Made by a program: the position numbers and the translations under genes
DNA from: an uncultured Mycoplasmatota bacterium
Lineage (GTDB): Bacteria; Bacillota_I; Bacilli_A; RF39; UBA660
Direction of reading: 5' to 3'
DNA: 32,225 nt
NCBI GenBank assembly: GCA_947645535.1
Contig: CANSDD010000002.1
Span: 1-32,225, forward strand
The notes under the pieces: generated by a model
Database searches by the model: none
Seen by the model: only the letters and a program-made list of their open reading frames with translations
What the model was told of the DNA's origin: nothing
Part shown: piece after piece, positions 1,630 through 30,291 of the stretch
Layout of the letters: each line of letters opens with the position of its first letter
Position numbering within the stretch: the first letter of the stretch is position 1

Positions 1630-1783
1630 TGAAAGCAAAAATATAAGAAATTATAAAAATATATTCAAACATTTTCTAAAAATAAAATGTCGTAAATCCT
1701 CATAAAATAAGAATATAACAGCATTTAAGAACTTATAAAAAGTTACTTAAAAAATACTATACTTTTTATCTAAAAATTTAACT

Positions 1784-1815
1784 AAAAAAGAAAAAAGAGC
1801 TATTTTCATAACTCT
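1784..1815 (-). terminator. Intrinsic terminator of the sortase-substrate operon
   Basis: The minus strand reads AGAGTTAT-GAAA-ATAGCTCT followed by TTTTTTCTTTTTT. It starts 8 nt after the stop at 1824. Confidence 0.7.
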
Positions 1816-1823
1816 TTATTTGA

Positions 1824-2336
1824 TTAAGCTTTTACATTACGTCTTTTACGAGAAATTATAATCATTAATCCTAATGAGATAAGTGCTACTGCAGCTACTG
1901 GAAGTACATAAGCTACATCTCCAGTATTAGGGCTGTTTGGTGCTCCTATCTTCTTATATTTTACACATAAAGCACTATCTGCACTAAGATCAGAAAAAGT
2001 AACTACTCCATCTGCTGGAATTGCAATATATTGACGATCTTTTAAAATACTTTCTATTTCATATCCTTCTTTTACATTGATTTTGAATGATTGAGTACAT
2101 CCTTCATCTACCTTTATATGCATTTCTTGACCACTTGCAATTGTGATAAGTGAACTATCTCCTGATATAGTACAACTATTTTTTGTTGTTGTAATTGAAC
2201 CATAGTCAATTCCTGTACCATCTTGTCCATTAATAACATGGATATCAATTTCAGCAGCTGATGCTACTCCTGTTCCTATACATAGTGCACAAAATGCAAT
2301 TGCGAAAAAGCTCATCATTTTTAAAGTTTTTTTCAT
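1824..2336 (-). CDS. Small secreted cell-wall-anchored protein with an SPNTG sorting signal
   Basis: The N-terminal signal peptide is MKKTLKMMSFFAIAFCALCIGTGVASA. The C-terminus carries SPNTG (nt 1920-1934), a hydrophobic helix and an RKRRNVKA tail, which is the tripartite sortase sorting signal. A GGGAGAG SD is present. Confidence 0.8.
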   Translation of the reverse strand: MKKTLKMMSFFAIAFCALCIGTGVASAAEIDIHVINGQDGTGIDYGSITTTKNSCTISGDSSLITIASGQEMHIKVDEGCTQSFKINVKEGYEIESILKDRQYIAIPADGVVTFSDLSADSALCVKYKKIGAPNSPNTGDVAYVLPVAAVALISLGLMIIISRKRRNVKA

Positions 2337-2390: not shown

Positions 2391-4889
2391 TCAATCCTCT
2401 ATTTTCTCTTCTGTGGCATTACTTGACATATTATTGTCTATTACGACATATTTTACAATTCTCTTAGCTATTACAATAAAGCGTTTAGAACCATTTTCGT
2501 CTGTACAAGTAGAAAGGGTTAAAATATGATCTTTTGGAGTAACTTCTAAATCACTAGAAATAATGGATTTTTCTTTTATATTTTCTAGATAATCTAAAAA
2601 ACTTTCCTCACTATCAAAATTAAATTCATATTTATCTTTTGCAGAATCAAATTCATAAGCCGCATAAATTTCATATTGGTACGTAGCATCTGGAGTAATA
2701 AGCCATACATATTTGTGTTCTTTTAAATATTCTTCATTTTTATATTTTTTTAATGAACCAAACATTGTTCCATTTCTAAGATTATGGGCATAAAGAATTG
2801 TATTTTCAGAGGTAAAATCAGTATTATTACGATAATCCATGAAAACAGAGCCACTAATGTTATACTTTTTATTATATAAATGATTTAAATAGAATTCATT
2901 GTTTTCTCCTTGCGATACAGGATAGTTAATTTCTGTACCATCAATTCTGACCCAAGCGACTACTTCTTCATTCTCAGACTTTAACGGTTCAAAATCTATT
3001 TGTGGTATATCATCATTGATTGGAAATTCATCTCTATCTGGATCCACTTCTAATACTTTATTTGGAATTGGCTTCGTTGCTCCCATTTGCTCTTGAATTT
3101 TATTATAACTATTATTAGCACTCCAATGATGCCATAAAATTCTTCCAAGTAAAAATAGTGAGATTGAAAAAATTAAAATTAAAATAACAAGTATTACCAT
3201 ATAAACTTTTTGACTTACAATCTTCTTTTTTAAGACTTTTTTCTCTATTTCCTTTGCATATTTTAAGTCTAATACTTGTGTTAAATGAAGCTCAGCATTT
3301 TCATAAAGCTCTGGTTTACTCATATATTCTACATAATGATATAAACATTTTAAATGATTACTTGCGAAAAGCCATTTTTCATGATCTTTAATTACATAAC
3401 GACTAATTCTTTTTTGCTCTACCTCATAAAATTTTGTAAAATATTCATTGATTTTGGAGAGAAGTATTTCTAATGATTCATATGTTAAACGTTTTTTTTC
3501 TAAATTATCGAAAAACTCTCCTACGAAATATTCACAAAATATTTTTTCTAATAAAACTTCTGTTTCTGAATATCTAATTTCATATTTTAGAATTGTCATT
3601 ATCTCTTCAATAATTTTTGAAATATCTAATGATGTTGTTAAAATGGTTTGTTCATAATATCTAGCAAGATCTTTATGTATCTCTTTATTTCCTTTTTTTG
3701 AAAGTTCTATTTCTTTTTCATATGACATCAATAATTCTATAATACTCTTTCTTGTTCCATCACTATGATAATCTGTCATTAAATATGGAAAGGTATGTAA
3801 AACTGATGTTTTTTCCAAAACTATTTTATCAAGCAATTCATCAAGTGTTAAAATGGGCTTTTCTGAAATTTCACTTTTTTTATTCTTTACTGCTTTTATA
3901 ATTTGTTGCTCATAATCTTCAATAATACGTTGATAAAGAGATGGTGATACATCTTCAAAAAAACGCAAACGACTAATTAAGCTTTGGTCAACAATTTCTT
4001 TTTCAATACTTAAATAAGAAAATTGTTCATAAAAAGGTTCTATACCTAATATTTCTTTAATTGTATACTGTTTTCTGCTTTTAATTTCTTCATATTTATT
4101 ATGAACAAAAGATTGGTATTTATTTCTTTTTTCAAGTAAATCAAACAAATATGGTAAATACGATAAGTTTTCTTCTAGTGTTGTTTTTATAACTTCTCTA
4201 TTTATATAAAGATCATTTCCCTCATAAATAAATGGTATATCATCTTTTAATGAAACAACTTTTACATGATCTTGAAAACCTAATTGTTCAAATAAATCTA
4301 AAATTAAAAAACGAAATAGCTCTGCATAGATTTCAGAAGAAATTCTAAATTCATGATTTTTTTCAAACAAAACATAAAACAAATAACGGAGATAATGATG
4401 AGGCATTAAGTGATTTTTATAAATCATTAAGTATTTTAAAAGATCATTTAATTCAAAATCATTTAATATTTTACTTTTTTTCATTTGTTTATGATAATAT
4501 CTACCTATTTCATTTTGATAATATTCAAAACGGATTTTAGACAAAAATTCTCCAAATGGAGCAAGTTCTCCAGGATATTTTTGATATAATTCTAGTAAAT
4601 TTAAGCAGGCTTTATTTTCATAAAAGGAAAATGGATCTTCTTTCATTTGCTCTAAATACAATTTTTCTAAAATTTTTATAATAAGAGATAGATAATGAAA
4701 ATTTTTATTTCTTTTCATAATTAGAACAGTACTATTTAAAACACGTGAAAACTCATCTAAACATTCTCTTCTAGGTAAAGTGCCATTTAAAAAAGAGCAA
4801 TCATCGCTTCCATGTAATAATTGTTGATATAGAACATTATCGTCTAAAATATATAGCAACTGTTCAATTGTAGTATTCCCCTTTTTCAT
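2391..4889 (-). CDS. srtB: Class B sortase domain fused, through one TM helix, to a ~560-aa N-terminal domain of unknown function
   Basis: The C-terminal ~200 aa show sortase B hallmarks: AWVRIDGTEINYPV, ILYAHN (His codon 2784-2786), ILTLSTC (Cys codon 2505-2507) and SKRFIV (Arg). One TM helix, VYMVILVILILIFSISLFLLG, lies at about nt 3135-3205. The N-terminal ~560 aa are helical and contain no motif I recognise. Confidence 0.85.
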   Translation of the reverse strand: MKKGNTTIEQLLYILDDNVLYQQLLHGSDDCSFLNGTLPRRECLDEFSRVLNSTVLIMKRNKNFHYLSLIIKILEKLYLEQMKEDPFSFYENKACLNLLELYQKYPGELAPFGEFLSKIRFEYYQNEIGRYYHKQMKKSKILNDFELNDLLKYLMIYKNHLMPHHYLRYLFYVLFEKNHEFRISSEIYAELFRFLILDLFEQLGFQDHVKVVSLKDDIPFIYEGNDLYINREVIKTTLEENLSYLPYLFDLLEKRNKYQSFVHNKYEEIKSRKQYTIKEILGIEPFYEQFSYLSIEKEIVDQSLISRLRFFEDVSPSLYQRIIEDYEQQIIKAVKNKKSEISEKPILTLDELLDKIVLEKTSVLHTFPYLMTDYHSDGTRKSIIELLMSYEKEIELSKKGNKEIHKDLARYYEQTILTTSLDISKIIEEIMTILKYEIRYSETEVLLEKIFCEYFVGEFFDNLEKKRLTYESLEILLSKINEYFTKFYEVEQKRISRYVIKDHEKWLFASNHLKCLYHYVEYMSKPELYENAELHLTQVLDLKYAKEIEKKVLKKKIVSQKVYMVILVILILIFSISLFLLGRILWHHWSANNSYNKIQEQMGATKPIPNKVLEVDPDRDEFPINDDIPQIDFEPLKSENEEVVAWVRIDGTEINYPVSQGENNEFYLNHLYNKKYNISGSVFMDYRNNTDFTSENTILYAHNLRNGTMFGSLKKYKNEEYLKEHKYVWLITPDATYQYEIYAAYEFDSAKDKYEFNFDSEESFLDYLENIKEKSIISSDLEVTPKDHILTLSTCTDENGSKRFIVIAKRIVKYVVIDNNMSSNATEEKIED

Positions 4890-4894
4890 CTCTT

Positions 4895-5071
4895 CTACTC
4901 CGCATTATTCTCTTTTAATATTTGACTTGCCTTTAAGTAATGGTGGGCCAAATGAAGAAATTCATTTGCTTCTGCTTCTTTTTTACATTTTAATGCTTCT
5001 TTATATTTTTCAAAGTAATAAACCATTTTTTCTCGATCATTATAGCTTCTATCAAAATAATTTTTATCCAT
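4895..5071 (-). CDS. 58-aa small helical protein, first gene of the sortase unit
   Basis: My translation is MDKNYFDRSYNDREKMVYYFEKYKEALKCKKEAEANEFLHLAHHYLKASQILKENNAE. An AGGAGTGGG SD precedes it. Its TAG stop (4895-4897) lies inside the SD of the 832-aa gene, 5 nt before that gene's ATG. It is below the ORF-track cutoff. Confidence 0.5.
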   Translation of the reverse strand: MDKNYFDRSYNDREKMVYYFEKYKEALKCKKEAEANEFLHLAHHYLKASQILKENNAE

Positions 5072-5096: not shown

Positions 5097-5125
5097 ATTT
5101 TAGCACACAATAATGAAAAGAACAA
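5097..5125 (-). promoter_or_regulatory. Candidate promoter of the sortase unit
   Basis: The minus strand shows TTGTTC, a 17-nt spacer, then TAAAAT. An imperfect palindrome, TTCTAT-N4-ATAGAA (about 5157-5172), lies just upstream. Confidence 0.5.
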
Positions 5126-5202
5126 GGTAAAAAATGAAATTTATGTTTGACAAAGATATTCTATTATGATAGAACAAACACAGATTGATAAGAAACTTCA
5201 TA

Positions 5203-5233
5203 TAAAAAAGGAGGCGCAATCTAACGTGTGCCT
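5203..5233 (-). terminator. Possible second (tandem) terminator after glyQS
   Basis: The minus strand reads AGGCACA-N8-TGCGCCT (one A-C mismatch) followed by CCTTTTTTAT. Confidence 0.3.
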
Positions 5234-5280
5234 GTTAGCTATCTTCTCTATTCTTATTTTGTAAGAATATCTTATATAAT

Positions 5281-5314
5281 AGAAAAAGAAATCTGCTTTA
5301 AGATTTCTTTTTCT
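5281..5314 (-). terminator. glyQS intrinsic terminator
   Basis: A 13-bp perfect stem, AGAAAAAGAAATC / GATTTCTTTTTCT, with an 8-nt loop lies directly after the stop at 5316. Confidence 0.75.
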
Positions 5315-5315
5315 A

Positions 5316-6692
5316 TTATATAAAGTCTTTCACTTTCTCTTCAATGTAAGATACAATGTCTTCAAGTGAAAGTGTAATTTGCTCCATAGTATCTCTATCT
5401 CTTATTGTAACTGTATTATGATTTAATGTTTCATCATCAATTGTAATGCAATATGGAGTTCCAATAACATCTTCTCTTCTATAACGTTTTCCAATATTAC
5501 CAGCTTCATCATAAGTTGTCATAAATTTTTTGCTTAACATATCATAAATTTCTAACGCTTTATCACTATGATGTTTTTTGATTAGTGGAAGTACTGCCAC
5601 TTTATAAGGAGCTAAAGATGGTTTTAAACTTAATACTTCTCTTGTGGTTCCATCAGGAAGTGTATCTTCATGATAGCTTTCGAATAAAACAGCTAAGAAA
5701 GTTCTATCAAGTCCATATGTTGATTCAATAATATATGGAATATATTTTTCATTTGTTTCTGGATCTAAATATTCTTGTGATTTTCCACTATATTCTTGAT
5801 GACGCGATAAATCATAATTTGTTCTATTATGTGTTCCATTTATTTCCCCCCAACCAAAAGGGAATTTATATTCAATATCACAAGCTTCTTTGGCATAATG
5901 AGCAAGTTTTTCATGATCATGATATCTTAAATGTTCTTCACTTAATCCTAAATCCATAAAAAATTTTTTACCATATTCTTTAAAATAAGCATAAGTTTCA
6001 GAATCTGTTCCTTCCTTACAAAATGTCTGAAATTCCATTTGTTCAAATTCAATTGTTCTAAATGTAAAATTACCAGGAGTTATTTCATTGCGAAATGCCT
6101 TTCCTATTTGTCCAATAGAAAATGGTAGTTTTGCTCTCATACTTCTTTGTACGTTTAAAAAGTTTACATATTCACCTTGAGCATTTTCTGGTCTTAAATA
6201 AATAACTGATTTAGAATCGTTAGTCACTCCCCTATATGTTTGAAACATCAAATTAAATTGTCTAATATCAGTAAAATTTGATTTTCCACATTTAGGACAA
6301 ATCACATTATGTTCTTTAATATAAGCTACCATTTCTTCTTCTGTCATTCCATCAGCATGTGCATTAGAATCGAAATCATCGATTAAATTATCAGCCCTAT
6401 GTCTTGTTTTACACTCTTTACAATCAAGTAATGGATCAGAGAATGAGCCAACATGACCAGATGCTTCCCAGACTCTAGGATGCATCAATATATCTGCATC
6501 TACTTCATAACTATTTTTTCTCTCTTGTATAAAACGCTTTCTCCAAGCATCTTTAATATTATTTTTTAATCTACTTCCAAGTGGACCATAATCCCAAGTA
6601 TTGGCAAGCCCATCATAAATTTCACTTCCTTGAAAAATAAAACCATATTGTTTACATAAATTTACCATTTTATCCATTGTTATTTTTTCCAT
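5316..6692 (-). CDS. glyQS: Glycine--tRNA ligase (alpha2, GlyQS type)
   Basis: The 458-aa length is typical. The N-terminus reads VNLCKQYGFIFQGSEIYDGLANTWDYGPLG, and RPENAQG is present. A T-box leader lies upstream. Confidence 0.97.
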   Translation of the reverse strand: MEKITMDKMVNLCKQYGFIFQGSEIYDGLANTWDYGPLGSRLKNNIKDAWRKRFIQERKNSYEVDADILMHPRVWEASGHVGSFSDPLLDCKECKTRHRADNLIDDFDSNAHADGMTEEEMVAYIKEHNVICPKCGKSNFTDIRQFNLMFQTYRGVTNDSKSVIYLRPENAQGEYVNFLNVQRSMRAKLPFSIGQIGKAFRNEITPGNFTFRTIEFEQMEFQTFCKEGTDSETYAYFKEYGKKFFMDLGLSEEHLRYHDHEKLAHYAKEACDIEYKFPFGWGEINGTHNRTNYDLSRHQEYSGKSQEYLDPETNEKYIPYIIESTYGLDRTFLAVLFESYHEDTLPDGTTREVLSLKPSLAPYKVAVLPLIKKHHSDKALEIYDMLSKKFMTTYDEAGNIGKRYRREDVIGTPYCITIDDETLNHNTVTIRDRDTMEQITLSLEDIVSYIEEKVKDFI

Positions 6693-6887: not shown

Positions 6888-8633
6888 TTATAGATAAAGT
6901 TCTATTAAATAATAAACTAATTCTGTTAAATCAATTGTATCTAAACTACCTAATTCTGTATCAGCAGATGTATTTGTATTTAATACATTTACTGTAATTA
7001 TCTTCATTTCTCCTGCTTTTATCTCATCATCTAATATTGCATTTCTTAAATTTTCTTTATTTTCATCATATAATTTAAATTTTCCATTTAGTTTTCTTGT
7101 CTCTGTATCTTCATTAGTAACTTCTAATTTAACTGTCATTGTTCTTTTATTATCTGCTATAGTAGCACTTTTAAATTTTACATTCCACTTATTGTAACTG
7201 ATTTCTTCTCTACCATTTCTACTTGTAATATTTGCTTTTGTTCTTGTAACTCCATTACAAGTATATCCTAAATCTAAATAATATTCATAGATATCATCAT
7301 AATTTTCATTCCATGTTGTATCTTTTTCTTCTTCTGTTGCTTTTTCATAATCTCTTTTTTCTAATAAACTATATCCTTGTTTTGCATCATCAAATGTGTA
7401 AGTCTTTTTTAACCCATCTGTATTTGGTAATGTAGCTTCTAATCCTTGAATTAAATCTTTTGATTCACTATAAGATGCTGTATCTTCTAAATAAGTAGTT
7501 TGTGCAATTTCTTCATTTAATACTTTCTTATTCTCTATATTATATTCTATTGTTACCTTATAATCTTCACTTATTTTTAAATCTGCATCTTCTGTGCTCA
7601 TTGTACAAACTAAATTTTGTGTTGTTGGTACATTTGGTTTTTCATTTGGTTGCTCTTTTATTGGCCCATTCTCTTTTTGTGTTGTTATCACTAAATAAAC
7701 ACCTACTCCAATTACTGCTAGTAATAAAACAACAATTATAATGATTAGTCCATTATTCCCTTTTTTATTTTTTGGCTTTTTCTGCTTTGTTGGTGGTAGT
7801 ATTGCTTCTTCTGTACTTGCAGGTGTTATTTGTGTTTCTTCTACACTTTGTGTTTGTAATATTGGATTCGTATTAGTTTCTAATGTATTTATTGTTGGCA
7901 TTACTGGATTTATTGGTAAATCATTTTCTGGTAATACTTGTTCTGCTTGATTTTGTACTGGTACACTTTGATTGATTTCATTATTCATAGTAATATCTGT
8001 ATTTTGTGGTGCCATATTTGGCATTGATATAGGTACTTCTTTGCTATTGATTGGTTGCTGTGTTATTTCATTTTGATTTGTTATTTTTGGAGCTATTGGT
8101 ACTACATTTTCTTCTAGATTGATATCTGGTGCTACAGTATTACTTGAATTTACATCTATTATCTCAGGCATCTCTGCTATTTCATTCTTTGGCTGCTTTG
8201 AAGCAGATTTTTTCATCAAAAATTTTGGTAAAGTAATATTTACTACGTCTTCTTCTTCTTTTTCAGGTAAAGTGAAAAAATTAGGATATTGATCCATTTT
8301 TTCATCAAACTCATTAGAACTTACAATGCTAATTCTTTCAATATTACTAAAATCTACTAATTCAATATCATTCCCTGATGTTTTACTAAATACTTGTTTA
8401 AAAAGGCCAAATACTTGCTCTTTTTCAGATGCTGTTTCACATTTGAATAATAAAAATTGCTCTCTCACCATAGAAAGTCTTCCTACATAAATTTCTAAAG
8501 GAAAGTCTCTTTTTTTCTTTGGAACCTCTGTATAAGCTAAATATTGATTTTGATTATATATTATTTTAAATCCTGCGACAATTTTTATATAGTGTTCTTC
8601 TTTTGTTGTATCTTTTGTGACTTTATTTTCCAT
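6888..8633 (-). CDS. Bitopic membrane protein of unknown function
   Basis: It has an N-terminal ~130-aa cytoplasmic domain and a long P/Q/N/T-rich low-complexity linker. One TM helix reads GLIIIIVVLLLAVIGVGVYLVITT. The ~260-aa ectodomain has a C-terminal part (MTVKLEVTNEDTETRKLNGKFKLYDE...) that resembles DUF4352-type beta-sandwich domains by eye. An AGGAGAG SD is present. Confidence 0.7.
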   Translation of the reverse strand: MENKVTKDTTKEEHYIKIVAGFKIIYNQNQYLAYTEVPKKKRDFPLEIYVGRLSMVREQFLLFKCETASEKEQVFGLFKQVFSKTSGNDIELVDFSNIERISIVSSNEFDEKMDQYPNFFTLPEKEEEDVVNITLPKFLMKKSASKQPKNEIAEMPEIIDVNSSNTVAPDINLEENVVPIAPKITNQNEITQQPINSKEVPISMPNMAPQNTDITMNNEINQSVPVQNQAEQVLPENDLPINPVMPTINTLETNTNPILQTQSVEETQITPASTEEAILPPTKQKKPKNKKGNNGLIIIIVVLLLAVIGVGVYLVITTQKENGPIKEQPNEKPNVPTTQNLVCTMSTEDADLKISEDYKVTIEYNIENKKVLNEEIAQTTYLEDTASYSESKDLIQGLEATLPNTDGLKKTYTFDDAKQGYSLLEKRDYEKATEEEKDTTWNENYDDIYEYYLDLGYTCNGVTRTKANITSRNGREEISYNKWNVKFKSATIADNKRTMTVKLEVTNEDTETRKLNGKFKLYDENKENLRNAILDDEIKAGEMKIITVNVLNTNTSADTELGSLDTIDLTELVYYLIELYL

Positions 8634-13010: not shown

Positions 13011-14198
13011 TTACTCACTTTCTATATTTTCTTCTACTATAATATTTTGATAACTTGTAATATCTTCTAATACAGTAAAAAATATTTCTAATTCTATTTT
13101 ACTCTCTTTTAGTTCAACTTTCAAATTTTTTTGACTAATAATTGATTCATTTGACGAAAGCTTTTCTTCCATTTTTTGTCGTGCTAATGCTGAAGCCTTA
13201 CTTATTGCTTCATCTTCTGTATTTACTTCATCAACTACTTTCGTTTCAAATTGCTTTTCTTTAGAAAATGAAATTGGTAAAAATGAATGATATAAAAGTT
13301 TATTTTCCTCTATATTTTTAGTTTTATAATAATTCCAAGGATAAAGTTGAAATTCTTTATTTAAAACTCTAAGTGTATATGCTGTTTGACTTTTTCCTGT
13401 TGGAATCTCTTCTTTATAAACAAAAGGATAAGAAACAATTACTTTATACCAAACCTCCCCATATATAGTTCCCTCTGCACTAACATTTTCTTTTAATTCA
13501 TCATTTAATTTTAACTCTCCGCTAATTACTACATCTCCTGCCTTTACATAATCTCCTTTATCTCTAATAATTTCTCCTTTTTCTGCATCTACTCTTCTTA
13601 ATACTGCACTTTTACTCGCCACTACATTTCTATTTTCGCCTTCTTTTTTTATCTCTTCTATTTTTCTCTCTTCTACTCTAACTACATATTTCGTTCCAAC
13701 TGCTTCTATTTCTAACCATTCAATCTTGTCTTTATTTCTATTTATGATATCTTCTTTAATTTTTTCAATCTCATCGAAACTTTTTTTCAAATTGAATACT
13801 TTTATTCCATGAGTTTCTAATTCTTTTGTAAGTAATGTTCTAATCTCTTTATCTGTATGAATAATCTCTATTTGAAATATGATATGAGATAAAAAATACA
13901 ATAGACAAATACCTAAGACTAGTCCAACTATAAAAAAACGATTTAATTTTAATTTTTTCTTTATCTTTAAACTACCAGCACTCCCTACTAAATCGATTTC
14001 ATAAACCGTTTTAATTTCTATTACTTTTTCGTAATCTTTTTCAAAAATTGTGATAATTACTGTTTTAGGATTTGGATATTTTATATTTAAAATATCAATT
14101 TTATGTTGATAAAGTCTCCTAATAAAACGTTCTAAATTTTTCCCTTCTACTTTTAAGATTACTTTTCCTTTCAACTTATTTATTAAAGGATCATTCAT
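13011..14198 (-). CDS. yqfD: Sporulation protein YqfD
   Basis: It is 395 aa with one TM after about 85 aa. The central VVASKSAVLRRVDAEKGEIIRDKGDYVKAGDVVISG block is present. It follows yqfC, as in Bacillus. Confidence 0.85.
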   Translation of the reverse strand: MNDPLINKLKGKVILKVEGKNLERFIRRLYQHKIDILNIKYPNPKTVIITIFEKDYEKVIEIKTVYEIDLVGSAGSLKIKKKLKLNRFFIVGLVLGICLLYFLSHIIFQIEIIHTDKEIRTLLTKELETHGIKVFNLKKSFDEIEKIKEDIINRNKDKIEWLEIEAVGTKYVVRVEERKIEEIKKEGENRNVVASKSAVLRRVDAEKGEIIRDKGDYVKAGDVVISGELKLNDELKENVSAEGTIYGEVWYKVIVSYPFVYKEEIPTGKSQTAYTLRVLNKEFQLYPWNYYKTKNIEENKLLYHSFLPISFSKEKQFETKVVDEVNTEDEAISKASALARQKMEEKLSSNESIISQKNLKVELKESKIELEIFFTVLEDITSYQNIIVEENIESE

Positions 14199-14914: not shown

Positions 14915-16252
14915 ATGAAAAAATTTCTACTTATATTTTTTGGAAAATGCATGGTTATTGTAGGAAAACTATTTAAAAAAGGTAGCTCTCTTCCTGGTGA
15001 TATCATTTTAAAAATTGATTCTAAATTTATGAGAGAATTTGTGTTACCAAAGGTAGTGATTGCTGTTACAGGTAGTTCAGGTAAAGGTTCCGTTTCTAGT
15101 ATGTTAAGGGAAATTTATAAAAAGAATGGTTATAAAGTTGCGCATAATAGTAAAGGCTCTAATTTAAGTGCTGGAATAATGACACTTTTATTAGAAAATT
15201 CTACTTTATTTGGAAATATCAATAAAGAGATACTTATTTTTGAAATTGATGAACGTTATACCAAACATGTATTTCCATACTTAAAACCCAATTATGTAGT
15301 GATTACAAATTTAACAAGAGATCAGCCACCTAGACAAGGACATTTTGATTTAGTTTTTGAAGAAATAAAGAAATCTTTAACAGATGATATGCATCTTATT
15401 TTAAATGGAGATGATGCCTATTTAGAAAAATTTGTAGACGGTCATAATGGCCCTATTACCTATTATGGAATTTCTAAAAATAAATATTCTTATACAAAAA
15501 ATAAATTTCAAACATTAAATTTAAATTATTGTCCAAAATGCAACAAAAAGTTAGAATATAAATATTATCACTTCGAAAATTTAGGCAACTATGTCTGCTC
15601 AAAATGTGATTTTAAAAGACCTAAAATTGATTTTGAAGCAACAAAATTAGATTTTGACAAAGAAGAAATAACAATCAATAAGAAATATCAAGTTCATATG
15701 TCATTTGGAATTTTATATGCAGCATATAATTTACTAGCAGCTTTTACAGTTTCTGTAATAAATGGATTAGATGCAGATATTGTTTGTAAAAATATTGAAG
15801 AAATATCTCAAAATAAGAAATTATATGACGAATATCAATATAATGGAAGAATGGTTACTGTATTAAATAATAAAAATGAAAATAGTACAACGTTTAATCA
15901 ATCTTTACTATTTATTGAACGATTTTCACATAAAAAAACAATTGTTGTTGGTTGGAGAGAAATTAGTAGAAGATATAATTATGATGATTTGTCTTGGCTT
16001 TATGATATTGATTTTGAATTACTTAAAAAACAAGATATCGATAAAATTGTTTGTGTTGGAATACACCGTTACGATATTGCAACTAGAATGAAATATGCTG
16101 GAATTGAAGAAAAAAAGATTATGATTTTTGATGATTTAAAAGAAGCAACAAACGAAATAAAAGCACATACAAAAGGTAATATCTATGCAGTGCTTAATTT
16201 TGATTACGTAGAGCCTTTTAATCGCTATATGAAAGAAGGCGATATCTTATGA
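14915..16252 (+). CDS. murT: Mur-ligase-family protein MurT (lipid II isoglutaminyl synthase subunit)
   Basis: LPGDIILKID, the P-loop VTGSSGKGS, TNLTRDQ and LNGDDA are present. The MurT-specific Cys4 ribbon reads CPKCNKKLEYKYYHFENLGNYVCSKCDFKR. The DUF1727 C-terminus includes DDLSWLYDIDFE. Confidence 0.88.
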   Translation: MKKFLLIFFGKCMVIVGKLFKKGSSLPGDIILKIDSKFMREFVLPKVVIAVTGSSGKGSVSSMLREIYKKNGYKVAHNSKGSNLSAGIMTLLLENSTLFGNINKEILIFEIDERYTKHVFPYLKPNYVVITNLTRDQPPRQGHFDLVFEEIKKSLTDDMHLILNGDDAYLEKFVDGHNGPITYYGISKNKYSYTKNKFQTLNLNYCPKCNKKLEYKYYHFENLGNYVCSKCDFKRPKIDFEATKLDFDKEEITINKKYQVHMSFGILYAAYNLLAAFTVSVINGLDADIVCKNIEEISQNKKLYDEYQYNGRMVTVLNNKNENSTTFNQSLLFIERFSHKKTIVVGWREISRRYNYDDLSWLYDIDFELLKKQDIDKIVCVGIHRYDIATRMKYAGIEEKKIMIFDDLKEATNEIKAHTKGNIYAVLNFDYVEPFNRYMKEGDIL

Positions 16253-16983
16253 ATATTACAATAGCCCATCTTTATTATGATTTGCTTAATTTATATGGAG
16301 AAAGTGGAAATGTAAAAGCATTAGAATATCAACTTGAAGGTCAAGGAATAACTGTAAAAATAAAGTTTCTAACAATTGGTGATACTCTAGATTTTAGTAA
16401 ATATGATTTTGTTTATATGGGAGCTGGTACAGAAGAAAACCAAAAATTAGCTTTAAAGCATCTTATCAAATATAAGGATAAAGTGAAAGAAGCGATGGAA
16501 AATGGTACTTTTTTCCTAATTACTGGTAATTCATTAGAATTATTTGGAAAATGTATTATTGATAGAAACGAAAAAAGAACAAAAACTCTTAATGTATTTG
16601 ATTTTTATACCAAACAAGAAAACTTTAGAATGGTTGATGAAGCACTTGTTAAATCGAAATTTATAAAACCTTATATTCTTGGTTTTCAAAATCAAGGTAG
16701 TGTTATAAAGAGTAATGATCAATTTATTTTATTTGATGTTGTGAAAGGAATTGGTAGTTTTCCAAATAGTAAAATTGAAGGTGTTCACAAAAATAATTTC
16801 TATGGTACTTACCTTATTGGTCCTATTTTGGTTAGAAATCCTGAATTATTAAAATATATGGTAAAAGAACTTATTACTAGTAAGAAAAAGGATTTTAAAT
16901 TTAAACGATTTAATTTAACTTTAGAAAATAAGGCTTATAATGAATTTATGAAAAATTACTATAGTGAATATATTGAAAATTAA
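16249..16983 (+). CDS. gatD: GatD-like (CobQ-type glutamine amidotransferase) partner of MurT, with catalytic residues apparently substituted
   Basis: It shares an ATGA overlap with murT. It aligns along its whole length to my recollection of S. aureus GatD: YMGAGTEENQ vs FIGGGSDREQ, DFYT, GFQNQG vs GFENHG, and GTYLIGPILVRNP vs GTYLHGPILPKN. Confidence 0.8.
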   Translation: MNITIAHLYYDLLNLYGESGNVKALEYQLEGQGITVKIKFLTIGDTLDFSKYDFVYMGAGTEENQKLALKHLIKYKDKVKEAMENGTFFLITGNSLELFGKCIIDRNEKRTKTLNVFDFYTKQENFRMVDEALVKSKFIKPYILGFQNQGSVIKSNDQFILFDVVKGIGSFPNSKIEGVHKNNFYGTYLIGPILVRNPELLKYMVKELITSKKKDFKFKRFNLTLENKAYNEFMKNYYSEYIEN

Positions 16984-17402: not shown

Positions 17403-17425
17403 CACAAAAAAAGCCAAGAAGGCTT
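17403..17425 (-). terminator. pheST terminator
   Basis: The minus strand reads AAGCC-TTCTT-GGCTT followed by TTTTTGTG. It overlaps the pheT stop codon. Confidence 0.65.
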
Positions 17426-19808
17426 ATTTATTTCTAAGTACTGCATCTAATTTTTTCGTTACTTCTGCAATAATTTTATTAAAGATTACTGTTACTTCTT
17501 CATCATTAAGTGTCTTATTTGGATCACGAAATGTTAAAGCATAAGCAATAGATTTTTCATCTTTTCCTACATTTTCACCTACATATACATCAAATACATC
17601 AATATTGGTAAGTAATCTACTGCCTGCTTTTTTGATTACATCTTCTACTTCTTTAGACGTAACATCTTCTTTTACTATAAACGAAACATCTTTTTTCACA
17701 CTTGGATATTTTGGTATTTCTTTAAACTTAATTGCTTTTACTTTTAATTCTAATATTTTCTTTAAATCAAGTTCAAATACATATACTTCCTTCTTACAAA
17801 TACTTGGATGTACTCTACCAATAAATCCAATAATATTTCTATCAATTATGATACTAGCGCTCATTCCTGGATGTAATTCTTTTACTAAATTATCTAAACT
17901 AAATTGATAACGATTATGTAGTCCTAAATAGTCTAATAAATTTTCTACAATTCCTTTTACTAAATAAAAATCTACCTTTAATTCTTTTCCTTGCCAAGTA
18001 TTTTCTTCATATACTCCACTTAAAAGTCCTGATAACATCATATTCTCTTTATACTCATCATTTTCTTTATAATAAATTGCACTTGTTTCAAAAATATGAA
18101 TGTCTTTTCTATTTCTAGCGCTATTATAATCATATACATGAAGTAATGATGGAATTAAAGATGTTCTCATTACTTTTCTATCTTCACTCATTGGCGATTC
18201 TAATATAACTGGTTCATATTTTTCATTATGAAATATATTTATTTCATTTTCACTTACTAATGAATAAGTTATCACTTGATTCAATCCAAGCGCACGTAAG
18301 TGTCTTCTAACGTTCTTTTCTAATTGTTCTTTTTTGGAATAAGTTCCTTTTTTCATTATATTCGTAGGTAGACTTCCAACTACTTTATCATATCCATATA
18401 TCTTTCCTATTTCAGCTATTACATCTTCTTTAATATTTACATCTATTCTTCTAGTAGGAACATAAACTTCAAATATATTATATTTGATTTTATATGTAAA
18501 TCCTAAACGAGTTAATATTTCTTCTACATCTTCTTTCGTAATATTCATACCAAGTACAGATACAATTTTTTCAAGTGATACTTCTATTTTTTTATCTTCC
18601 TTACTCGCTATATCATGCATCAAAATACCTGAATAAATTTCTGCATTTGCATATTGTTCTAATAATTCACAAGCTCTATTCATAGCTAGTATCGTACGAC
18701 TTGGATCTACACCTTTTTCATAACGAATACTGGCTTCACTTCTAATGATTGCTTTTGATGTATAACGAATACGCAAAGGATTAAAAATAGCTGCTTCAAT
18801 AAAAATATTTTTTGTATCATTTTCAATCTCTGTTTCTAATCCACCCATGACACCAGCAAGCGCTACTGGTTCTTTTTCATTTGCAATAACGATATCACTT
18901 GTTTTTAATACCCTAGCTTTTCCATCTAATGTATTTAACATTTCTCCTTCGTTTGCCATTCTAACAACAACAGTATTTCCGAGTTTATCTTTATCAAAGA
19001 AATGAAGTGGTTGTCCATATTCAAGCATAACATAGTTACTAATATCAACAACATTGTTAATTGGTCTAATTCCACTTGCCATCAGTCTGTTTTTAATGAA
19101 TTTAGGACTTTCTTTAATTTCTACATTTTTTACCATTTTTCCTAAATAAATAGGACAATTATCTGTTCTTACATCTAACTTCATGATATCACAAATATTT
19201 TCTTTTGTTTCATGTAGTTTTATATCTGGTAATGTTACTTTTTGATTATAAATAGCGCCTATTTCATAAGCCATTCCAATAATATTTAATAAGTCTGCTC
19301 TATCAGCAGTAAGTTCAAAATCAATAATTTCATCATCAAAACCTAAGTAATGTAGAGCATCTTCACCAACTTTAGCATCAGCATCTAATACATGAATCCC
19401 TGCATGATCTTCTTCTTTTAAATATTTTGATTCAAGACCAAGTTCTGCCATAGAACAAATCATTCCATGAGATTCCATTCCAGCTAATTTGGCTTTTTTA
19501 ATAACACCTCCAGGAAGTTCTGCACCAATAGTTGCAACAATAACTTTTTGCCCCTTAGCTACATTAGGAGCACCACATAATATTTGAACAGTCTCACTAC
19601 CAATATTTACTTTACAAATATGTAAATGATCTGATTCTGGATGATTAACGCAATCTTCTATATATCCAACAACTAATCCTTTTGCATTACAAAGTTTTTC
19701 GATACTTTCATATTCATTTCCAGCAAATACCATTTTCTCTGCTACTTCACTATAAGGAATATTAGATAAATCAATATAATCACTTAAAAAATCTTTACTT
19801 AAACGCAT
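17424..19808 (-). CDS. pheT: Phenylalanine--tRNA ligase beta subunit
   Basis: It is 794 aa. The N-terminal tRNA-binding OB domain reads HPESDHLHICKVNIG. The B3/4, B5 and C-terminal FDX-ACB layout is present. It overlaps pheS by 1 nt. Confidence 0.97.
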   Translation of the reverse strand: MRLSKDFLSDYIDLSNIPYSEVAEKMVFAGNEYESIEKLCNAKGLVVGYIEDCVNHPESDHLHICKVNIGSETVQILCGAPNVAKGQKVIVATIGAELPGGVIKKAKLAGMESHGMICSMAELGLESKYLKEEDHAGIHVLDADAKVGEDALHYLGFDDEIIDFELTADRADLLNIIGMAYEIGAIYNQKVTLPDIKLHETKENICDIMKLDVRTDNCPIYLGKMVKNVEIKESPKFIKNRLMASGIRPINNVVDISNYVMLEYGQPLHFFDKDKLGNTVVVRMANEGEMLNTLDGKARVLKTSDIVIANEKEPVALAGVMGGLETEIENDTKNIFIEAAIFNPLRIRYTSKAIIRSEASIRYEKGVDPSRTILAMNRACELLEQYANAEIYSGILMHDIASKEDKKIEVSLEKIVSVLGMNITKEDVEEILTRLGFTYKIKYNIFEVYVPTRRIDVNIKEDVIAEIGKIYGYDKVVGSLPTNIMKKGTYSKKEQLEKNVRRHLRALGLNQVITYSLVSENEINIFHNEKYEPVILESPMSEDRKVMRTSLIPSLLHVYDYNSARNRKDIHIFETSAIYYKENDEYKENMMLSGLLSGVYEENTWQGKELKVDFYLVKGIVENLLDYLGLHNRYQFSLDNLVKELHPGMSASIIIDRNIIGFIGRVHPSICKKEVYVFELDLKKILELKVKAIKFKEIPKYPSVKKDVSFIVKEDVTSKEVEDVIKKAGSRLLTNIDVFDVYVGENVGKDEKSIAYALTFRDPNKTLNDEEVTVIFNKIIAEVTKKLDAVLRNK

Positions 19809-20857
19809 TATTGTTCACTCCCTTCGGTGCGATTGAAATCCTCTAAAAATCTTAAATCATCTGTATAAAAATTACGAATATCATTAATTCCATATTTAAG
19901 CATAGCTACTCTCTCTGGCCCTATTCCAAAAGCAAATCCTGTATATTTTTCAGGGTCATAGCCACAACCTCTTAATACATTTGGATGAACCATTCCAGAA
20001 CCTAATATTTCTATCCAACCTGTTCCTTTACAAATAGAGCAACCACTTCCACCACATTTAAAACAGCTTACATCTACTTCTAAACTTGGTTCTGTAAATG
20101 GGAAGAAGCTTGGGCGAAAACGTATTTCTCTATCCATTCCAAATAATTTTTTAGCTAGTTCTTCTAATGTTCCTTTTAAATGAGATAAACTAATATTTTC
20201 TCCTACTACTAATCCTTCTATTTGTGTAAATTGATGAGAGTGTGTTGCATCATCATCATCTCTACGATATACTTTTCCTGGACATATAACACGAACTTCC
20301 GTTTTTTCTTTATTTGCATCCATTACTCTTGCTTGTACTGGAGAAGTTTGTGTACGAAGTAACATTTCTTCTGTAATATAAAAACTATCTTGTGCATCTC
20401 TTGCTGGATGTCCTTTTGGTAAGTTTAATTTTTCAAAGTTATATAAATCTTCTTCTATTTCAGGCCCTTCTACCACATCATATCCCATTGATACAAATAA
20501 TTCTTCTATTTCTTCAATTACTTTTGTTAATGGATGAATTGCTCCAACATGAAGTTTGGCACTTGGAAGTGTAATATCTATTTTTTCTTTTTGTAGTTTT
20601 TCATTTAATTCTTTTTCTTCTAATGCTTTTTTAGTATTTTCAAATAAAGTATTTGCTTCATTTTTTACTTCATTTAATACTTTTCCAAATTCTTTTTTTT
20701 CTTCTACTGGTAAATCTCTCATCATAGTAGTAAGTTCATTAATTGGCCCTTTTTTCCCTAAATATTCTACTTTTAAATCATTTAATTCTTTTAATGTAGT
20801 AATACTTTTTATTTTTTCTTTCATTTCTTTTTTCAAAGTTTCTACTTTTTCTTTCAT
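19808..20857 (-). CDS. pheS: Phenylalanine--tRNA ligase alpha subunit
   Basis: The class II motifs [12 protein letters not shown] and [18 protein letters not shown] are present. Confidence 0.97.
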
Positions 20858-20877: not shown

Positions 20878-21100
20878 AAAAAAAATCACAAATCCATATA
20901 AGGACGTGATTTATGCGTGGTACCACCTTAATTTGTAGAATAATCTACCTTGAAACTGTAACGCGTTACCGTTATATGTTTTGCATATAAAACTCCAAGA
21001 TGAATTCATAAAGTGATATTATCTATTTCCACCAACCATAGACTCTCTTTTAATATCTTCCATTTATTACTACTTCTCTTCTTCGCTTTTTTTTATAAAC
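20878..21100 (-). promoter_or_regulatory. Canonical T-box leader, Phe specifier UUC
   Basis: The minus strand shows a GA/K-turn region (GCGAAGAAGAGAAG), AAGAGAGTC and GGTTGGTGGAAAT distal elements. The specifier loop is GAA-TTC-A, with UUC at 21002-21004. The T-box motif AATTAAGGTGGTACCACG lies at about 20916-20934. The terminator is AAATCAC...GTGATTT followed by T7. Confidence 0.9.
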
Positions 21101-24987: not shown

Positions 24988-26211
24988 TTATAATTTTAAT
25001 TTTCTATATATTTTTTTTAAAATAATAAAACACATAACAATAAAGGAGAAAATGATTCCTAAAATTATAACTTCGATTTTATGTTCTATTACATAGTTTT
25101 TGATATCTAAAGAAACTTTTTGATTTAAAATAATATCTTTTGTTGCTATTACATCTCCATCATAACGAATTGTTAACATTCCAAGTTTAGTTCCTTTTTT
25201 TATAAATGGATCTACTTCTATAATACCATCATATTCAAATTCTAAATCCTTTTTTTTAAAATCTTTTGGAACATATTTTTGAATATTCTCATCAGCATAT
25301 ATTGATATATTTTTTTCTTTTGCGTATTTAGTACCTATTTCTAATATTATATCTTCTTTTTCTATGACAAATTGATTGCTAAAATTTTCTATAAAATATC
25401 CATATATTGTTCTAGCATCTAATAAATGATATGGGGTTTTTCCATAAGGAGCACGTGCTGTAACAAGCATATAATGGACATTATCATATTCAGCAACGCT
25501 TGCTAAACAAAGTCCTGCATCAAAAGTAGAACCTGTTTTCCCACCTTTTACATATTCCATATCTAATCCATATCTTTTTAAATTTTTAGAAGTTGTACTT
25601 TGAAATATCAAACTTTTATCACTAATTGTATAAGAAGGATTTGTAATCATTTCTTTAAAATCTTCATTTTGAAGTGCATATTTAAAAATAGTCGCTACAT
25701 CTTCTACAGTAGAATAATGATTTTCTTCATCTAGTCCTGTCTCATTCATAAAATGTGTATTTTTTAAGTTTAATTCTTCTGCTTTTTGATTCATTAAATC
25801 AATAAAGTTTTCTCTTCCACCTGCTACTGTCCTAGTTAAAGCCAAAGCGGCATCCGCTCCAGATGGAAGTAATAATCCATATAATAAATCTCTATATGTT
25901 ACAATTTGTCCTATACTAAAGCCAGCAACAGAGGCATTTGCTTCTTCTAAACCTTCAAAGTCTGAAGATGTAAGTACAATTCTTTCTTCTAAATCATGAA
26001 TATGTTCAAGCGCTACAATAGCAGTCATAATCTTCGTCATAGAGGCAATTGAAATTTTTTCCCCACTATCTTTTTCGTATAAAACTTTATCTTCATCTAA
26101 ATTATATAAAATAACATTTTCTGATATTACATCTAATTCTACAGCTTGTACAACTGGAATGAAAATTGTAAATACCAAAAATACAATCAAATAACGAATA
26201 TATTTTTCCAT
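24988..26211 (-). CDS. Serine-type D-Ala-D-Ala carboxypeptidase (PBP5/DacB family) with a C-terminal membrane anchor
   Basis: The SxxK motif is SMTK and the KTG motif is KGGKTGS. The SxN position reads SGAD. A signal sequence is present. The track start at 26277 is TTG with no SD, so I place the start at the ATG at 26211 (MEKYIRYLIVF...), preceded by GAAAGGAA. Confidence 0.88.
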   Translation of the reverse strand: MEKYIRYLIVFLVFTIFIPVVQAVELDVISENVILYNLDEDKVLYEKDSGEKISIASMTKIMTAIVALEHIHDLEERIVLTSSDFEGLEEANASVAGFSIGQIVTYRDLLYGLLLPSGADAALALTRTVAGGRENFIDLMNQKAEELNLKNTHFMNETGLDEENHYSTVEDVATIFKYALQNEDFKEMITNPSYTISDKSLIFQSTTSKNLKRYGLDMEYVKGGKTGSTFDAGLCLASVAEYDNVHYMLVTARAPYGKTPYHLLDARTIYGYFIENFSNQFVIEKEDIILEIGTKYAKEKNISIYADENIQKYVPKDFKKKDLEFEYDGIIEVDPFIKKGTKLGMLTIRYDGDVIATKDIILNQKVSLDIKNYVIEHKIEVIILGIIFSFIVMCFIILKKIYRKLKL

Positions 26212-26345
26212 TTTTGCTTCATTCCTTTCACTTTGTTCAAGGTACGCATGACTATGAACAATATAATTATTTTTCAAGTTATTTATGATTATTAGTATGC
26301 TATGATTGATTCTATAAAATTATACGATAAAAAATCATATTATTT

Positions 26346-28120: not shown

Positions 28121-28147
28121 AACAAAAAAGAGATTACATTTCTCTTT
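28121..28147 (-). terminator. Terminator of the MATE-fusion gene
   Basis: The minus strand reads AAAGAGA-AATGTAA-TCTCTTT followed by TTTGTT. It overlaps the stop codon at 28134. Confidence 0.6.
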
Positions 28148-30122: not shown

Positions 30123-30136
30123 TTTTACCTCCTCAC

Positions 30137-30162
30137 AGAAAAAAACACAAATATTTTTGTGC
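30137..30162 (-). terminator. Terminator-like hairpin between the helicase gene and the MATE SD
   Basis: The minus strand reads CACAAA-aata-TTTGTG followed by T7, about 15 nt before the SD. It may be the helicase terminator or a leader attenuator. The stem is weak and AT-rich. Confidence 0.3.
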
Positions 30163-30291
30163 ACGTGTTGTTCGTTAATCATTATATCTCATAATGTTCG
30201 TTTCCAATTTAACCAATGCTTTCTCATTTTAACACACATTTTTTTTAAATTCAAGTAATTTTTAAATGAAAAAAATAAGAAAAATTTTTCC

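Follow-up and report, generated by a model that had tools for sequence, protein, structure and literature searches.

Sortases are treated as small autonomous ectoenzymes that are regulated through the expression of their substrates or through separate sensors of the cleaved sorting peptide. The locus analyzed here raises the question why a sortase should carry 556 additional residues on the predicted cytoplasmic side of the membrane, and what these residues could contribute to surface anchoring. It is located on contig CANSDD010000002.1 (assembly GCA_947645535.1) of an uncultured Mycoplasmatota bacterium. The whole stretch of DNA that was analyzed, positions 1 to 32,225 of this contig, is called the window. 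Its guanine-cytosine (GC) content is ~25%, and its genes lie nearly all on the minus strand. The question concerns one open reading frame (ORF) and its two neighbours; lengths are given in amino acids (aa) or nucleotides (nt):

4895 to 5071, minus strand: gene for a 58-aa helical small protein, the conserved upstream partner
2391 to 4889, minus strand: giant sortase ORF, 832 aa, ATG start
1824 to 2336, minus strand: gene for a 170-aa predicted substrate with a signal peptide, a Cys-containing beta-rich domain of ~110 aa and a cell-wall sorting signal

We propose that the three genes form a surface-display cassette, in which the N-terminal domain of the giant sortase (N-domain) and the 58-aa protein act as a non-catalytic cytoplasmic binding module. 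We give this reading an about even chance of being right.

A class B sortase joined to a large predicted cytoplasmic domain

The giant sortase was divided into three parts.

2457 to 2996, minus strand: catalytic domain of the class B sortase, aa 632-811, predicted to be extracellular; triad of His702, Cys795 and Arg803
3129 to 3203, minus strand: single transmembrane (TM) helix or signal anchor, aa ~563-587, placed by hydropathy, flanking charges and conservation
3222 to 4889, minus strand: N-domain, aa 1-556, predicted to be cytoplasmic; homologous to a standalone HExxH...E family but degenerate

The NCBIfam equivalog model for class B sortases, TIGR03064, matched aa 562-806 with 212.9 bits (cutoff 153.75) and was covered from position 4 to 235 of 235. 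The Pfam Sortase domain matched aa 648-810. Structures of SrtB from Staphylococcus aureus, Bacillus anthracis, Listeria monocytogenes, Clostridioides difficile and others in the PDB matched aa 632-811 with expect values (E) of 1e-38 to 1e-29. The best of these were the S. aureus entries 1qx6 and 1ng5 (E ~1e-38), and the C. difficile entries 4ux7 and 5gyj were also found. The catalytic residues could be mapped to His702 in YAHN (nt 2784-2786), Cys795 in TLSTC (nt 2505-2507) and Arg803 in KRF (nt 2481-2483), and all three are unchanged across 13 aligned orthologues. Thus the features of a class B sortase (MEROPS C60B), namely score, triad, signal anchor and a cognate xPxTx substrate, were all found in silico. 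The size is different. Canonical class B enzymes have ~220-290 aa and a short cytoplasmic stub, while this protein has 832 aa, about three times the normal size, with the extra 556 residues joined to the cytoplasmic end. Since the TIGR03064 match already starts at aa 562, it includes the signal-anchor helix of the sortase itself, and the 556 aa are therefore appended to an otherwise canonical SrtB. The sortase part looks like a complete, orthodox SrtB and is probably active.

Membrane topology was analyzed with a 19-residue Kyte-Doolittle scan. The only segment above 1.6 was found at aa ~563-587 (peak 3.1), the next best window reaching 1.17, and no N-terminal signal peptide was found in the giant sortase. 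Six Lys or Arg residues lie within 15 residues on the N-terminal side of the helix, compared with one on the C-terminal side. Every giant orthologue has one such helix, and its sequence is nearly invariant (ILILIFSxSLFLL). The standalone homologues of the N-domain, described below, are soluble proteins in which neither a hydrophobic or TM segment nor a signal peptide was found. Based on the positive-inside rule and these soluble homologues, aa 1-556 are predicted to be cytoplasmic and the sortase domain to be extracellular. An extracellular N-domain was rejected on the same two grounds. This agrees with the initial annotation, which had described an intact catalytic domain with the triad in these positions, restricted to the C-terminal part of the 832-aa protein, a single TM helix at about nt 3135-3205, and a topology with the large domain inside and the sortase outside. 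Residue mapping, the 13 orthologues, the TIGR03064, Pfam and PDB matches, the hydropathy scan and the charge bias all support it.

The cluster representative P0001, which is listed as 100% identical, differs from the window N-domain in two residues (Pro39 to Ser and Arg469 to Cys), apparently a difference between strains.

The fusion is conserved as part of a three-gene unit

A search with aa 1-556 alone returned 13 full-length clusters of 793-832 aa with 49-59% identity, and all of them carry the Pfam sortase domain. In a species-per-genome collection, eight loci were found in metagenome-assembled genomes (MAGs) labelled uncultured Tenericutes or Bacilli. A profile search against 1.84 billion representatives added two deeper fused branches, P0135 (824 aa, 33% identity) and P0136 (826 aa, 24%). 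Together this gives at least 15 diverged fused orthologues with 24-62% identity, from low-GC "Bacilli/Tenericutes" gut MAGs. NCBI labels the members merely as "class B sortase [Bacilli bacterium]". The taxonomic range is narrow and takes in only a few lineages of low-GC gut Bacilli, all of them uncultured. The ratio of nonsynonymous to synonymous substitution rates (dN/dS), calculated for five close orthologues, was 0.06-0.12 in the N-domain, compared with 0.04-0.08 in the sortase domain, and the orthologue alignment has invariant motifs spread throughout the N-domain. From these comparisons the fusion is judged to be real and old, and the N-domain to be under strong purifying selection rather than decaying. 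The initial annotation had named split orthologues as a sign of an artefact. None were seen: the 13 clusters, the two distant representatives and the eight genomes all keep one ORF of 793-832 aa.

The neighbouring genes are conserved as well. The order small ORF (50-61 aa), giant sortase, substrate recurs in every one of the eight genome loci and on the P0135 and P0136 contigs. The trio stays intact despite different flanking genes in loci L007, L008, L014 and L015. A small gene of the 58-aa type and a substrate with an [S/D]PxTG motif thus accompany every fused form examined, a co-occurrence that had been proposed for checking. As a separate observation, an unrelated 300-aa gene lies between glyS and the small ORF in locus L003 (6850-7752) and likewise in L004 to L006. 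It has no counterpart in the window, and the trio tolerates insertions at its upstream border. Origin from a mobile element or phage was also considered and is unsupported, as the contexts consist of chromosomal housekeeping genes, although the flanks of the trio vary between lineages.

The N-domain derives from a family with an HExxH...E signature

The N-domain family had no credible match in Pfam, NCBIfam, PHROGs, PADLOC or PDB, and sequence and profile searches of the PDB with the whole protein and with a standalone-family profile gave no match for the N-domain. A role in a defence system was rejected, since PADLOC returned nothing and the neighbours are housekeeping genes. The exhaustive profile search of the 1.84 billion representatives, in contrast, detected soluble standalone relatives, P0139 to P0149, of 295-572 aa (HMMER E 2e-11 to 8e-4). 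Eight of them were aligned (P0139, P0140, P0141, P0142, P0143, P0146, P0147 and P0149). The homology between standalone and fused forms spans roughly aa 11-445 of the N-domain. Comparison of the two alignments with hhalign gave 99.4% probability and E 4e-21 over 241 columns, and a hidden Markov model built from the standalone members alone matched every giant sortase with E 5e-29 to 2e-12. By these profile comparisons the relationship is solid.

The motifs were compared in an alignment of 12 giant sortases and the eight standalone forms. The following positions of the window protein are of interest:

4128 to 4145, minus strand: degenerate active-site position F249-D-L-L-E-K254, aligned to F-H-E-x-x-H
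4002 to 4004, minus strand: Glu296 in YLSIEKE, candidate third metal ligand, aligned to the invariant Glu of the standalone forms
3747 to 3788, minus strand: motif P-x-L-x-x-x-Y-x-x-D-G-x-x-K, aa 368-381, common to fused and standalone forms

All eight standalone proteins have the signature F-H-E-x-x-H, followed ~41 residues on by Y-Y-x-D-N-Y-x5-E-x-D and then by P-x-L-x-x-E-Y-x-x-D-G-x-x-K. The second and third motifs (YY.DNY....E and P.L..EY..DG..K) are common to fused and standalone forms. Within the third motif, L370 and Y374 are invariant and G378 is nearly so. The downstream Glu is kept in 8 of 8 standalone and 10 of 12 fused forms, its role as a ligand being a candidate only. At the HExxH columns, the fused forms read F-[DEVF]-[LE]-x-E-K. 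Both His are gone in all 12; the second is replaced by Lys in 12 of 12, the catalytic Glu by Leu in 11 of 12, and the position of the first His is Val or Phe in P0135 and P0136. The window protein thus lacks the HExxH by which a zincin or gluzincin is recognized. Loss of the motif tracks the fusion perfectly, all 12 fused forms being without it and all 8 standalone forms having it. The loss of HExxH under continued purifying selection argues for a pseudo-enzyme that is retained in a non-catalytic role. Judged by its motifs, the N-domain is catalytically dead.

We then turned to structure prediction. The AlphaFold2 model of the N-domain, built from 11 sequences, had a mean predicted local distance difference test score (pLDDT) of 76 and a predicted template modelling score (pTM) of 0.45. 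Helices predominate in it, and aa 208-230 form a small sheet of three strands. The standalone protein P0139 was modelled with pLDDT 73, and the pTM of the two models lies at 0.45-0.48. The order of the predicted elements, with strands at 208-230, a helix at 245-262 and the helix with the Glu, is compatible with a zincin. Foldseek searches (N-domain against the PDB, P0139 against the PDB and BFVD) returned only generic alpha-solenoid noise with template modelling scores below 0.3 and E above 0.007. A model and fold search of this kind had been suggested at the outset, and the N-domain has no significant PDB neighbour. The standalone family, too, had no match in Pfam, NCBIfam, PHROG, PADLOC or PDB; the sole family hint was a match of one member to DUF6782 (E 0.05). 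A word-indexed search that used the profile of the standalone family gave back only the first member of that family and no named relatives. The standalone proteins are therefore best described as a rare, unannotated and uncharacterised family of putative zinc peptidases. The initial annotation had called the N-domain a helical domain of ~560 aa with no recognizable motif and of unknown function. The helical character and the lack of a named family stand. The domain is, however, not an orphan, as it is a degenerate member of the HExxH...E family.

A small partner protein that predates the fusion

The stop codon TAG of the 58-aa ORF follows directly after GGAG and lies 5 nt before the ATG of the sortase. 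Translational coupling of the two genes is likely. The small protein is 65-76% identical in the eight genome loci, compared with 49-59% for the N-domain. Its pattern reads t-D/E-E-E-K, then M-v-Y-Y-Y-E-l-Y-k-k-A-l-E...E-A..Y-L.L-A..Y. Pfam, NCBIfam, PHROGs and PADLOC returned no credible family for it.

A similar gene was found with the standalone forms. An ORF of 58-64 aa abuts or overlaps the start of P0139, P0146, P0140, P0143 and P0149, and the distant fused forms P0135 and P0136 are likewise preceded by a small ORF. In total, a small ORF of 50-66 aa lies upstream in all eight genome loci and in all seven other relatives examined in context. When 1,533 six-frame ORFs were searched with a profile of the sortase-associated proteins, the ORFs next to P0139 and P0140 came out on top (E 5e-4 and 0.02). 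Conversely, a profile made from the standalone-associated ORFs ranked the sortase-associated small ORFs first (E 4e-4 and 0.06). Pairwise BLAST of the small ORF of locus L009 against the 58-aa protein of the window was not significant on its own (E 0.47), so that the support comes from the group profiles only. As a small ORF precedes fused and standalone forms alike, the pair predates the fusion. The 58-aa gene is accordingly regarded as an ancestral partner of the N-domain family that is not specific to sortases. That the small protein is more conserved than the N-domain, even after the loss of catalysis, speaks for a stable subunit rather than a consumed substrate.

In one arrangement, two standalone paralogues, P0141 (496 aa) and P0146 (572 aa), occur in tandem with a 60-aa ORF between them (L009:6323-9719 and L010:896-4292). 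The tandem lies among glycolysis genes, and the next gene upstream encodes a 222-aa protein that contains a Spo0A_C domain. Of the two paralogues, only the second comes with a small ORF of its own.

A single predicted client with an orthodox sorting signal

The substrate gene starts 54 nt after the stop codon of the sortase and lies directly downstream of it in all eight genome loci and in L014 and L015. The protein gave weak matches to LPXTG_anchor and NPXTG models (Pfam, NCBIfam). Its C-terminal end carries the sorting signal:

1827 to 1934, minus strand: SPNTG, hydrophobic segment and tail SRKRRNVKA, conserved

Close relatives have SP[NDAE]TG as their motif, and the most distant one has DPDTG. 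After the motif come a conserved TG-D/E-x-x-Y/I-x-L/F-P-L/V-A... and, at the end, the tail K-R/N-R/K-N/S-V/L-K-A, which reads KKKVEA in the partner of P0136. Even in relatives with a diverged mature domain, the TM segment and the V-[K/E]-A tail are conserved. We scanned all ORFs of the window and of all loci for a second sorting signal of the [S/D]PxTG type and found none. The substrate may thus be the single dedicated client of the giant sortase.

(S/P)PxTG is the motif of C. difficile SrtB (PMC4155245, PMC5118464, PMC8225981), so that a class B enzyme paired with SPNTG is nothing unusual. As MurT/GatD and a PBP5-type carboxypeptidase are encoded in the window as well, the organism has peptidoglycan to anchor to. 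In agreement, RF39-like reduced Bacilli are reported to keep most wall genes, and sortases to be absent only from RFN20 and ML615J-28 (PMC10868615).

The three genes probably form an independent operon

The borders of the unit were analyzed next to the coding sequences.

1783 to 1817, minus strand: terminator-like hairpin with U-run after the substrate gene, 10 bp, -9.8 kcal/mol, z -3.1
5097 to 5125, minus strand: candidate promoter TTGTTC, 17 nt, TGcTAAAAT, a plausible extended -10
5275 to 5320: terminator hairpin of glyS, upstream of the unit, 20 bp, -21.5 kcal/mol, z -8.9

A consensus scan for promoters and terminators was uninformative at 25% GC, with 36 promoter-like sites where 29 were expected. 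It missed the hairpin at 1783-1817, the stem of which is AT-rich, and the candidate promoter is not among its calls. As the candidate is preceded by the strong glyS terminator, the unit presumably needs a promoter of its own. The hairpins bracket the trio and the trio is cohesive; the three genes are therefore probably an independent operon. The initial annotation had proposed such a tight unit with its own promoter and terminator, with the stop of the 58-aa gene inside the Shine-Dalgarno sequence of the sortase and an adjoining SPxTG substrate gene 55 nt further on. The spacings of 5 and 54 nt and the order kept in relatives agree with this description, as do the energy and U-run of the terminator; the promoter, which was first proposed there, did not come up in the scan.

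Between the glyS terminator and the candidate promoter, the minus strand has a locally GC-rich stretch at 5200-5245 (…ggcacacgttagattgcgcctcc, then a T-run) with no Rfam match.

Comparison with known systems

The nearest canonical SrtB proteins were used as a size census. The sortase-domain search from which they were taken did not list the giant family, apparently owing to the way it selects candidates, and served this purpose only. All but one of the 120 best relatives are full-length proteins of 240-289 aa or fragments, and identity does not exceed 47% save for one fragment. The exception, P0133, has 435 aa and owes its length to a low-complexity extension at the C-terminus, not the N-terminus. 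A sortase with a large cytoplasmic domain was found neither in literature searches nor in a 2021 review of sortase biology. Together with the empty searches of Pfam, NCBIfam, PHROGs, PADLOC and PDB, this fits the early suggestion that the architecture was undescribed.

C. difficile SrtB (CD2718) is similar in class, His-Cys-Arg triad, type II anchor and preference for (S/P)PxTG over NPQTN (PMC4155245, PMC5118464, PMC8225981). In contrast to the giant sortase, it has ~225 aa, a short cytoplasmic stub and several dispersed substrates. The giant sortase adds 556 cytoplasmic residues, a small partner gene and one adjacent client. The pairing of one sortase with one adjacent dedicated substrate is also known from SrtB/IsdC of S. 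aureus. That system uses an NPQTN motif within a haem-uptake operon and has no cytoplasmic domain, whereas nothing in the unit of the window points to iron acquisition. The standalone HExxH...E proteins share with the N-domain the motifs, the upstream ORF of ~60 aa and the low-GC Bacilli genomes. They differ in being soluble proteins of 295-572 aa with FHExxH kept, without TM helix or sortase and without an adjacent sorting-signal protein.

Two further systems are instructive. BlaR1/MecR1 (M56) is similar by analogy only, as in it a cytoplasmic domain of the zincin type is linked across the membrane to an extracellular domain that forms a covalent acyl-enzyme. In BlaR1 there are several TM helices, and the HExxH is active, cleaving BlaR1 itself as well as BlaI. 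The giant sortase has one TM helix, a dead motif and no sequence similarity to M56 in Pfam. In the SGO_1180 two-component system of Streptococcus gordonii, a membrane-retained remnant of the substrate is reported to be read by another membrane protein (PMC11326707). This sensing of the C-peptide is a precedent for remnants being read by membrane proteins. The reader is a separate histidine kinase in S. gordonii, whereas here it would be a hypothetical one within the sortase polypeptide.

What is new is that a known enzyme with a known substrate logic has been combined with a small partner and with a cytoplasmic pseudo-enzyme domain that is conserved. The family from which the N-domain stems, an HExxH-type protein with a small ORF, is itself undescribed. 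The retention of a pseudo-enzyme of 556 aa together with its partner implies that surface anchoring may depend on something intracellular in at least one lineage. It is also a natural example of a transition from enzyme to pseudo-enzyme that coincides with a domain fusion. Uncultured reduced-genome gut Bacilli have few surface proteins, and each is probably important for host association.

Possible roles of the N-domain

In the mechanism that we favour, the extracellular sortase would cut the SPNTG of its client between T and G and link the client to peptidoglycan. The N-domain descends from soluble HExxH...E proteins that travel with a helical partner of ~58 aa. In the lineage fused to the sortase anchor, the two metal-binding His and the catalytic Glu have given way to other residues (F-D-L-L-E-K), while strong purifying selection on the domain and its partner continued. 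In a complex with the 58-aa protein, the former peptidase scaffold could then hold a cytoplasmic ligand. The preferred candidates are the cytoplasmic tail of the client (...K-R/N-R/K-N/S-V/L-K-A) or the membrane peptide left after cleavage. Binding would recruit, gate or clear the single client of the sortase, either by two-point recognition, with the motif read outside and the tail inside, or by clearing the remnant or reporting it. An intramembrane contact could be made by the TM helix, which is nearly invariant. The partnership with the small protein, the choice of ligand and the coupling across the membrane are our inference, and so is the idea that anchoring may be linked to a cytoplasmic partner or signal, as the initial annotation had already suggested. 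With three genes and a single substrate, this minimal system makes such coupling open to direct testing.

Several points weigh against this reading. The proposed contacts of the N-domain, with the tail of the client or with the 58-aa protein, are hypothetical, and the standalone relatives are themselves uncharacterised. No sortase substrate lies near the ancestral standalone pair, so that the family has something else as its primary ligand, possibly the small protein only. The conserved positive tails are partly expected of any sorting signal. The putative zincin assignment comes from the HExxH...E signature and the order of the structural elements, not from a fold or family match, and neither AlphaFold2 model resembles a solved structure in the PDB or a viral structure in BFVD.

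In the main rival reading, the dead domain and the 58-aa protein could be a scaffold that tethers or oligomerises the sortase at a cytoplasmic landmark, with no contact to the substrate. The division site, the pole, the forespore or the secretion machinery could serve as such a landmark, so that the client is displayed at a defined place or time. We regard this as quite possible, although not probable. As the ancestral pair occurs without a sortase substrate, its native ligand is not a sorting-signal tail, and self-association would be compatible with a TM helix that is nearly invariant. These genomes have sporulation genes, with YqfD in the window and the Spo0A_C protein beside the standalone paralogues. 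However, no known localisation or cytoskeleton-binding domain was detected in the Pfam, NCBIfam and Foldseek PDB searches, and a scaffold leaves the unusually conserved tail and TM segment of the substrate unexplained.

The favoured binding module could also be extended to a bidirectional device spanning the membrane. The dead-peptidase domain and its partner would read the tail or a cytoplasmic cue and would license, time or report the display of the client. This stronger form is rather unlikely. If true, it would be the first sortase activity wired to the cytoplasm within one polypeptide, and the standalone pairs would define a new putative protease-and-partner system in reduced-genome Bacilli.

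Signalling after the manner of BlaR1 is related to this idea. Occupancy or acylation of the sortase would be relayed through the TM helix to the N-domain and its partner, or a cytoplasmic cue would switch the sortase on. The pairing of an extracellular domain that forms an acyl-enzyme with a cytoplasmic zincin-derived domain is suggestive, and the small partner could be released or sequestered. In addition, streptococci are known to monitor sortase processing through the membrane-retained C-peptide (PMC11326707). We nevertheless consider this model unlikely. With the peptidase signature destroyed, a proteolytic output of the BlaR1 type is impossible, although coupling of a non-proteolytic kind is not. 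There is one TM helix only, Pfam revealed no similarity to M56/BlaR1, and no regulator or DNA-binding gene is conserved in the unit across the eight genome loci and the contexts of P0135 and P0136.

It is very unlikely that the N-domain is still an enzyme, with a metal bound through substituted residues such as Asp250, Glu253, His263 and Glu296, or another kind of hydrolase that degrades, for example, the cleaved sorting peptide. Glu296 is kept in most fused forms (10/12), and most close orthologues have the invariant His263 and an acidic residue at the position of the first His. In P0135 and P0136 this position is Val or Phe, however, His263 is absent from P0136, and the exchanges of the catalytic Glu to Leu (11/12) and of the second His to Lys (12/12) point the other way. 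Lys at the position of a metal ligand is typical of dead enzymes.

Finally, a misassembled or frameshifted ORF is refuted by the orthologue survey, and it is hardly credible that the N-domain is an artefact or functionless baggage of a decaying fusion, given a single ORF in at least 15 diverged lineages from independent assemblies, the low dN/dS (0.06-0.12) and the invariant motifs throughout. One related cluster member, P0014, is a fragment of 331 aa, as is expected on short contigs.

Other observations in the window

Several features outside the three-gene unit are recorded here. The Rfam family ssNA-helicase RNA (RF03070) matched 1444-1493 on the minus strand with 43.6 bits (gathering threshold 41.5). 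The match lies right after a gene for an HD-domain protein at 814-1437, which is on the plus, opposite strand. The gene at 6888-8633 (minus strand) encodes a 581-aa protein with a single TM helix, a long low-complexity stretch rich in Q, N, P and T, and no family match. It is ~40-42% identical to its counterparts in L003, L004 and L006, compared with 64-84% for the adjacent genes, and thus evolves much faster.

The genes for MurT and GatD (14915-16983, plus strand), which act in glutamate amidation of lipid II, are the sole plus-strand block in a minus-strand region, and the GC skew flips locally. Together with YqfD (13011-14198) and the PBP5-like carboxypeptidase (24988-26277), they indicate that wall genes and part of the sporulation genes have been kept in the host. 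At 20897-21092 on the minus strand, upstream of pheS/pheT (17424-20857), there is a T-box leader with a score of 116 bits (RF00230). This arrangement is ordinary and served as a sanity check of the annotation.

Two unusual proteins are encoded near the end of the window. The first (30292-32184, minus strand, 630 aa) combines helicase-associated (HA, PF03457) with pseudomurein-binding (PMBR, PF09373) repeats, which is odd for a bacterium with a murein wall. The second (28134-30182, minus strand, 682 aa) has a flippase-like MatE/polysaccharide-biosynthesis domain followed by a C-terminal domain similar to cytidylate kinases (PF13189), an unusual fusion of a transporter and a kinase.

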